Assembly (NCBI RefSeq): GCF_003334335.1
Contig: NZ_QOWQ01000002.1
Direction: 5' to 3' (one strand)
Length of the DNA stretch: 64,000 nucleotides
DNA from: Escherichia coli
GTDB lineage: Bacteria > Pseudomonadota > Gammaproteobacteria > Enterobacterales > Enterobacteriaceae
Made by a program: the position numbers and the translations under genes. The notes beneath the pieces were generated by a model. That model was not told the DNA's origin. It searched no databases and saw only the letters and a list, made by a program, of their open reading frames with translations. Positions 36,815-46,437 of this stretch are shown piece by piece. Position 1 is the stretch's first letter. Each line of letters starts with the position of its first letter.

Positions 36815-39442
36815 ATGAGCGACCTTGCGAGAGAAATTACACCGGTCAACATTGAGGAAGAGCTGAAGAGCTCCTATCTGGATTATGCGATGTCGGTCAT
36901 TGTTGGCCGTGCGCTGCCAGATGTCCGAGATGGCCTGAAGCCGGTACACCGTCGCGTACTTTACGCCATGAACGTACTAGGCAATGACTGGAACAAAGCC
37001 TATAAAAAATCTGCCCGTGTCGTTGGTGACGTAATCGGTAAATACCATCCCCATGGTGACTCGGCGGTCTATGACACGATCGTCCGCATGGCGCAGCCAT
37101 TCTCGCTGCGTTATATGCTGGTAGACGGTCAGGGTAACTTCGGTTCTATCGACGGCGACTCTGCGGCGGCAATGCGTTATACGGAAATCCGTCTGGCGAA
37201 AATTGCCCATGAACTGATGGCCGATCTCGAAAAAGAGACGGTCGATTTCGTTGATAACTATGACGGCACGGAAAAAATTCCGGACGTCATGCCAACCAAA
37301 ATTCCTAACCTGCTGGTGAACGGTTCTTCCGGTATCGCCGTAGGTATGGCAACCAACATCCCGCCGCACAACCTGACGGAAGTCATCAACGGTTGTCTGG
37401 CGTATATTGATGATGAAGACATCAGCATTGAAGGGCTGATGGAACACATCCCGGGGCCGGACTTCCCGACGGCGGCAATCATTAACGGTCGTCGCGGTAT
37501 TGAAGAAGCTTACCGTACCGGTCGCGGCAAGGTGTATATCCGCGCTCGCGCAGAAGTGGAAGTTGACGCCAAAACCGGTCGTGAAACCATTATCGTCCAC
37601 GAAATTCCGTATCAGGTAAACAAAGCGCGCCTGATCGAGAAGATTGCGGAACTGGTAAAAGAAAAACGCGTGGAAGGCATCAGCGCGCTGCGTGACGAGT
37701 CTGACAAAGACGGTATGCGCATCGTGATTGAAGTGAAACGCGATGCGGTCGGTGAAGTTGTGCTCAACAACCTCTACTCCCAGACCCAGTTGCAGGTTTC
37801 TTTCGGTATCAACATGGTGGCATTGCACCATGGTCAGCCGAAGATCATGAACCTGAAAGACATCATCGCGGCGTTTGTTCGTCACCGCCGTGAAGTGGTG
37901 ACCCGTCGTACTATTTTCGAACTGCGTAAAGCTCGCGATCGTGCTCATATCCTTGAAGCATTAGCCGTGGCGCTGGCGAACATCGACCCGATCATCGAAC
38001 TGATCCGTCATGCGCCGACGCCTGCAGAAGCGAAAACTGCGCTGGTTGCTAATCCGTGGCAGCTGGGCAACGTTGCCGCGATGCTCGAACGTGCTGGCGA
38101 CGATGCTGCGCGTCCGGAATGGCTGGAGCCAGAGTTCGGCGTGCGTGATGGTCTGTACTACCTGACCGAACAGCAAGCTCAGGCGATTCTGGATCTGCGT
38201 TTGCAGAAACTGACCGGTCTTGAGCACGAAAAACTGCTCGACGAATACAAAGAGCTGCTGGATCAGATCGCGGAACTGTTGCGTATTCTTGGTAGCGCCG
38301 ATCGTCTGATGGAAGTGATCCGTGAAGAGCTGGAGCTGGTTCGTGAACAGTTCGGTGACAAACGTCGTACTGAAATCACCGCCAACAGCGCAGACATCAA
38401 CCTGGAAGATCTGATCACCCAGGAAGATGTGGTCGTGACGCTCTCTCACCAGGGCTACGTTAAGTATCAGCCGCTTTCTGAATACGAAGCGCAGCGTCGT
38501 GGCGGGAAAGGTAAATCTGCCGCACGTATTAAAGAAGAAGACTTTATCGACCGACTGCTGGTGGCGAACACTCACGACCATATTCTGTGCTTCTCCAGCC
38601 GTGGTCGCGTCTATTCGATGAAAGTTTATCAGTTGCCGGAAGCCACTCGTGGCGCGCGCGGTCGTCCGATCGTCAACCTGCTGCCGCTGGAGCAGGACGA
38701 ACGTATCACTGCGATCCTGCCAGTGACCGAGTTTGAAGAAGGCGTGAAAGTCTTCATGGCGACCGCTAACGGTACCGTGAAGAAAACTGTCCTCACCGAG
38801 TTCAACCGTCTGCGTACCGCCGGTAAAGTGGCGATCAAACTGGTTGACGGCGATGAGCTGATCGGCGTTGACCTGACCAGCGGCGAAGACGAAGTAATGC
38901 TGTTCTCCGCTGAAGGTAAAGTGGTGCGCTTTAAAGAGTCTTCTGTCCGTGCGATGGGCTGCAACACCACCGGTGTTCGCGGTATTCGCTTAGGTGAAGG
39001 CGATAAAGTCGTCTCTCTGATCGTGCCTCGTGGCGATGGCGCAATCCTCACCGCAACGCAAAACGGTTACGGTAAACGTACCGCAGTGGCGGAATACCCA
39101 ACCAAGTCGCGTGCGACGAAAGGGGTTATCTCCATCAAGGTTACCGAACGTAACGGTTTAGTTGTTGGCGCGGTACAGGTAGATGACTGCGACCAGATCA
39201 TGATGATCACCGATGCCGGTACGCTGGTACGTACTCGCGTTTCGGAAATCAGCATCGTGGGCCGTAACACCCAGGGCGTGATCCTCATCCGTACTGCGGA
39301 AGATGAAAACGTAGTGGGTCTGCAACGTGTTGCTGAACCGGTTGACGAGGAAGATCTGGATACCATCGACGGCAGTGCCGCGGAAGGGGACGATGAAATC
39401 GCTCCGGAAGTGGACGTTGACGACGAGCCAGAAGAAGAATAA
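36815..39442 (+). CDS. gyrA: DNA gyrase subunit A
   Basis: 875-aa ORF; active-site and quinolone-resistance-determining region ...[17 protein letters not shown]; acidic C-terminal tail. Confidence 0.98.
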
Positions 39443-39461
39443 TTTTACTTCTTCATGCCAA

Positions 39462-39484
39462 AAGGGAGCTATCTCCCTTGTTTG
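39462..39484 (+). terminator. Putative terminator hairpin downstream of gyrA
   Basis: AAGGGAG-ctat-CTCCCTT stem followed by GTTTG; weak T-run. Confidence 0.4.
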
Positions 39485-39590
39485 AATTGAAAAGTCCAGG
39501 CTGCAAAGTCTGGGCTTTTGTCGTATTAGGGCACGGTAAAGTTTGGCTGTGCCCGTAAAAAATGGCTGGCTATACACAAGGAATGTGGCA

Positions 39591-46437
<6,847 letters not shown>

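Follow-up and report, generated by a model that had tools for sequence, protein, structure and literature searches.

GyrA provides the DNA breakage–reunion core of gyrase, in which Tyr122 links covalently to DNA, and quinolones trap the gyrase–DNA cleavage complex. A water–metal-ion bridge ties fluoroquinolones to Ser83 and Asp87 in helix IV of GyrA, and S83L or D87N/G/Y weaken the drug contact at this bridge; the quinolone-resistance-determining region (QRDR) of GyrA is defined as residues 67–106. The closest described system is the GyrA of E. coli K-12 MG1655 (annotated protein WP_001281242.1; structures 3NUH, 6RKS, and 1AB4). The resistant alleles S83L, S83L+D87N, and S83L+D87G, found for example in Z0117EC0116, Ecol_316, and CH4790, belong to the same gene and are altered at the same codon positions, while gyrA96, found in cloning strains such as DH5alpha, carries D87N in a K-12-type gyrA background.

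Within the 64-kb stretch of E. coli DNA that was analysed as a whole (the window), the gyrA open reading frame has 100% nucleotide identity to the annotated gyrA of MG1655 over all 2628 nt, with no mismatch, and the same holds for many other strains. The protein, with its QRDR, Tyr122, and GyrA box, is identical to that of MG1655 (Table 1). Codons 51, 67, 81–87, 106, 119, and 196 were also read individually and all are in the reference state, as the nucleotide identity to MG1655 demands. The sequence-only reading had placed a serine codon at position 83 and an aspartate codon at position 87, and both the positions and the bases are correct when counted from the ATG. It had also stated that S83L and D87N/G/Y are missing; since the entire gene matches MG1655 gyrA at every nucleotide, these and all other GyrA substitutions are indeed absent, and this allele state is observed directly. 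In contrast, the resistant alleles carry TTG at codon 83 and AAC or GGC at codon 87 where the window carries TCG and GAC, although one or two base substitutions would be enough to turn the window allele into any of them. A single C>T transition would turn TCG into TTG (Leu), and GAC is one base from AAC (Asn), GGC (Gly), and TAC (Tyr). The allele likewise differs from gyrA96, which has D87N; with Asp87 (GAC) in the window, the source is therefore not a gyrA96 laboratory or cloning host. Chance is no concern here, as the wild-type call is read deterministically from a conserved gene in its reference state. The best explanation, to which we assign a probability of roughly 97%, is that the window carries the chromosomal wild-type reference gyrA of a phylogroup-A-like, K-12-related E. 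coli, with the drug-binding site intact. We found no sequence evidence in the window that contradicts a wild-type gyrA.

Table 1. Coordinates of gyrA, its diagnostic codons and motifs, and other features in the window
Feature	Position	Strand	Basis and remarks
Extended −10 element TGtTATAAT	36762–36770	+	Read by eye; 45 nt upstream of the gyrA ATG
gyrA CDS, DNA gyrase subunit A	36815–39442	+	875 codons plus stop; nucleotide identity, TIGR01063, Pfam
QRDR, codons 67–106, all reference residues	37013–37132	+	Translation; identical to PDB 3NUH E. coli GyrA
Codon 83, TCG = Ser, wild type	37061–37063	+	Counted from ATG 36815
Codon 87, GAC = Asp, wild type	37073–37075	+	Counted from ATG 36815
Codon 122, TAT = Tyr	37178–37180	+	Residue read from translation
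GyrA box QRRGGKG, residues 560–566	38492–38512	+	Motif location; C-terminal beta-propeller domain
Terminator-like hairpin	39462–39479	+	Pattern scan, consensus match; 20 nt after the gyrA stop codon
Opposite-strand ORF in gyrA	36977–37948	−	
Opposite-strand ORF in gyrA	37961–38581	−	
Opposite-strand ORF in gyrA	38629–39051	−	
Opposite-strand ORF in gyrA	39158–39577	−	
yfaS (alpha-2-macroglobulin family)	41923–46437	+	Intact ORF, 1504 codons
naRNA4 (RF02564) match	28958–29028	+	Rfam
naRNA4 (RF02564) match	59208–59284	+	Rfam
naRNA4 (RF02564) match	59322–59398	+	Rfam
MicF antisense small RNA	63059–63152	−	114 bits versus gathering score 79

We infer both the mode of drug binding and the susceptible phenotype from established knowledge: since neither Ser83 nor Asp87 nor any other residue is changed, the drug-binding site would be intact, and an intact site predicts that the gyrase of this strain is fully quinolone-sensitive. 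Among ciprofloxacin-resistant clinical E. coli, gyrA was mutated in 194 of 195 isolates (99%) and S83L was present in 191 of the 195, the MIC rose 10- to 20-fold more with a single gyrA mutation than with changes in parC, acrR, or marR, and S83L has been argued to be the first step to clinical fluoroquinolone resistance (PMC5400412). The same work implies about 0.016 mg/L as the ciprofloxacin MIC of the wild type. Since gyrA is mutated in nearly all resistant isolates, a wild-type gyrA predicts the absence of clinical-level fluoroquinolone resistance. The strain thus lacks the usual first step, gyrA S83L, and stands one C>T change away from it. Together, this literature and the wild-type residues throughout GyrA support the earlier prediction of a susceptible genotype at this locus. 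The support reaches this one locus only, because parC, parE, gyrB, the efflux regulators (marR, acrR, and soxR), and any plasmid-borne genes lie outside the 64-kb menB–ompC window, and the genotype of a single locus does not amount to a phenotype.

In the alternative that survives best, the source strain would lack quinolone susceptibility although its gyrA is wild type, owing to plasmid-borne determinants or efflux determinants located beyond the window; candidates are qnr, aac(6')-Ib-cr, qepA, and oqxAB, as well as raised efflux through marR, acrR, or soxR. Such cases are documented: reduced susceptibility without QRDR mutation has been described via qnrS1 and efflux, two qnrS1-positive strains without QRDR mutation showing low-level resistance with nalidixic acid MICs of 16–32 µg/mL, and a QRDR-wild-type isolate above breakpoints via QnrS1, OqxAB, and efflux is cited in the same work (PMC3995870). 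However, only 1 of the 195 ciprofloxacin-resistant clinical isolates had an unmutated gyrA (PMC5400412), and no acquired or inserted DNA relevant to quinolone resistance was found in the window, which is collinear with MG1655 and free of indels. We therefore regard resistance by this route as unlikely, at odds of under one in ten. If it were true, a strain-level label of susceptible would be wrong and the genotype would be an uncommon one that is already documented, but it would not conflict with a call limited to this locus.

The wild-type reading of gyrA also depends on the codon numbering, as a misplaced start or an indel would make the call an artefact. We ran the alignment with reference GyrA that the sequence-only reading had proposed as its check. 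Residues 1–524 of the protein read from the ATG at 36815 align with residues 1–524 of the E. coli GyrA chain in PDB 3NUH/4TMA with zero differences, and they coincide with positions 1–524 of the full-length GyrA chain in PDB 6RKS, whose length of 875 aa is also that of the ORF. Furthermore, the ORF is nucleotide-identical to the annotated MG1655 CDS, and there are zero indels relative to MG1655 across the whole window. The numbering is thus a direct observation, and this residue-by-residue agreement with solved GyrA structures and with the annotated MG1655 CDS rules out a miscount, the one error that had been named as fatal to the call; the probability that we still attach to it is well below one in a hundred.

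The identity of the gene is equally direct. The ORF list gives a single long plus-strand ORF spanning codons 83 and 87, of 875 aa and with an ATG start, and this ORF is gyrA. A homologue at ≥95% identity is present in all 5426 of 5426 complete E. coli genomes, and each genome with a match has it annotated as gyrA. Over the whole protein, the NCBIfam equivalog model for gyrA, TIGR01063, scores 1310 bits (cut-off 877) and a further NCBIfam gyrA model, NF004043, scores 1259 bits (cut-off 902), whereas the parC models stay under their cut-offs, with 580 bits for parC_Gneg TIGR01062 where 629 are required. The Pfam architecture is that of GyrA, with the breakage–reunion domain PF00521 at residues 32–507 followed by six PF03989 beta-propeller blades at residues 538–839. 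Codon 122 encodes the DNA-cleaving active-site tyrosine of E. coli GyrA, and the GyrA box, the motif that distinguishes gyrase from topoisomerase IV, lies within the first PF03989 blade (residues 538–584). The equivalog score, the domain architecture, Tyr122 with the GyrA box, and the ubiG/gyrA/yfaA context all place the protein in the GyrA family. The idea that the gene is instead the paralogue parC (topoisomerase IV subunit A), with its hot spots then at Ser80 and Glu84, draws on parC models that are likewise significant by E-value because the two families are homologous, but it is ruled out, with a probability next to nil, by the NCBIfam cut-offs, by the QRRGGKG box, by the gyrA annotation in all matching genomes, and by the ubiG and yfaA flanks, which are as in K-12.

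To place the gyrA allele among E. coli genomes, 30-mer BLAST probes over codons 80–89 were compared with the 5426 complete genomes, which gives an approximate census. Six sampled, aligned matches revealed three synonymous backgrounds, GCG-GTC (for example K-12), GCG-GTT (Nissle 1917), and GCA-GTT (O157:H7). Exact matches to the wild type were found in 639 genomes for the GCG-GTC background, 2014 for GCG-GTT, and 297 for GCA-GTT, which sum to at least 2950 of 5426 (54%), a lower bound for the wild type as rare synonymous backgrounds are left uncounted. About 1816 of the 5426 genomes (33%) were unmatched by the wild-type probe. Double mutants at codons 83 and 87 are tallied only as unmatched because no 11-base seed remains, and about one third of the genomes seem to be such double mutants; the S83L+D87N allele in the GCG-GTC (K-12-type) background was matched exactly in 331 genomes. 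A further ~660 genomes (12%) gave mismatched matches beyond what the three wild-type probes explain and represent single mutants or less common backgrounds. The gyrA state in the window is the majority one, and the commonest, in E. coli. The wild-type call is of practical value only: it is correct but routine, automatic in a resistance-gene pipeline, already known, and adds nothing new on gyrase or resistance. As separate observations from these queries, 1 of 2369 matches of the S83L+D87N 30-mer was on a record classed as plasmid, and one plasmid-borne copy was among the matches of the gyrA ORF query, which hit as many as 2 places in a genome.

The window as a whole is collinear with the menB–ompC region of MG1655, and base-by-base comparison gave 14 SNPs and 0 indels, with neither an acquired gene nor other acquired DNA in it. 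The gene order begins with menB, menC, menE, pmrD, arnFETDACB, ais, nudI, yfaZ, yfaY, the rhm genes, and yfaD, continues with glpCBA, glpTQ, inaA, yfaE, nrdBA, yfaL, ubiG, gyrA, yfaA, yfaT, yfaS, yfaQ, and yfaP, and ends with atoBEAD, atoCS, rcsC, rcsB, rcsD, and ompC. The synteny around the gene can be read directly: the order yfaL-ubiG-gyrA-yfaA-yfaT is the same as in K-12, ubiG and yfaA flank gyrA, and the neighbours and their orientation are those of MG1655. Twelve of the 14 SNPs fall in coding sequence, 2 of them silent and 10 protein-changing (one each in menE, arnT, yfaV, glpA, yfaS, yfaQ, atoD, and rcsC, and two in yfaD). This non-synonymous share is unusually high and possibly reflects fixation of changes in the laboratory lineage of K-12. 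The yfaS gene is intact in the window. Its codon 1338 (45934–45936) is TGG (Trp), compared to TGA in MG1655, where the internal stop makes yfaS a pseudogene in K-12 (annotated as 'internal stop'). The 14 SNPs, including the intact yfaS, therefore identify the source as a close relative of K-12 and not K-12 itself.

Two parts of the window were compared with other complete genomes. Bases 25001–50000 are identical to strain 1332KP. For bases 1–25000, no perfect match was found among complete E. coli genomes, the best score being 46150 bits against 46167 for a perfect match, with eight genomes tied, among them that of the pig isolate CP8-3_Sichuan. There are 7 differences from MG1655 in this part, 4 of which are common to CP8-3_Sichuan and 3 of which are not. 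These three bases, which are unlike both MG1655 and CP8-3_Sichuan, lie at 1715 (menE S162G), 5144 (arnT P62T), and 23684 (glpA-glpT intergenic), and sequencing errors or variants private to the source strain may account for them.

Upstream of gyrA, the element TGtTATAAT is a perfect consensus extended −10, and we consider it a putative promoter that probably serves gyrA; the consensus promoter scan skipped it because it has no −35 match. The terminator-like hairpin downstream is a consensus match only, and such matches are no commoner here than in shuffled sequence. The four opposite-strand ORFs inside gyrA were rejected as genes and treated as mechanical shadow ORFs, as MG1655 has no annotation on that strand in gyrA.

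Two kinds of RNA element were observed elsewhere in the window. MicF lies upstream of ompC and is divergent from it, as in K-12. The naRNA4 family (RF02564), a repeat-derived nucleoid-associated RNA, has three matches in the nrdB-nrdA and rcsC-rcsB intergenic regions. The query with bases 25001–50000 gave a median of 34 matching places per genome, and naRNA4-type repeats might explain this number.
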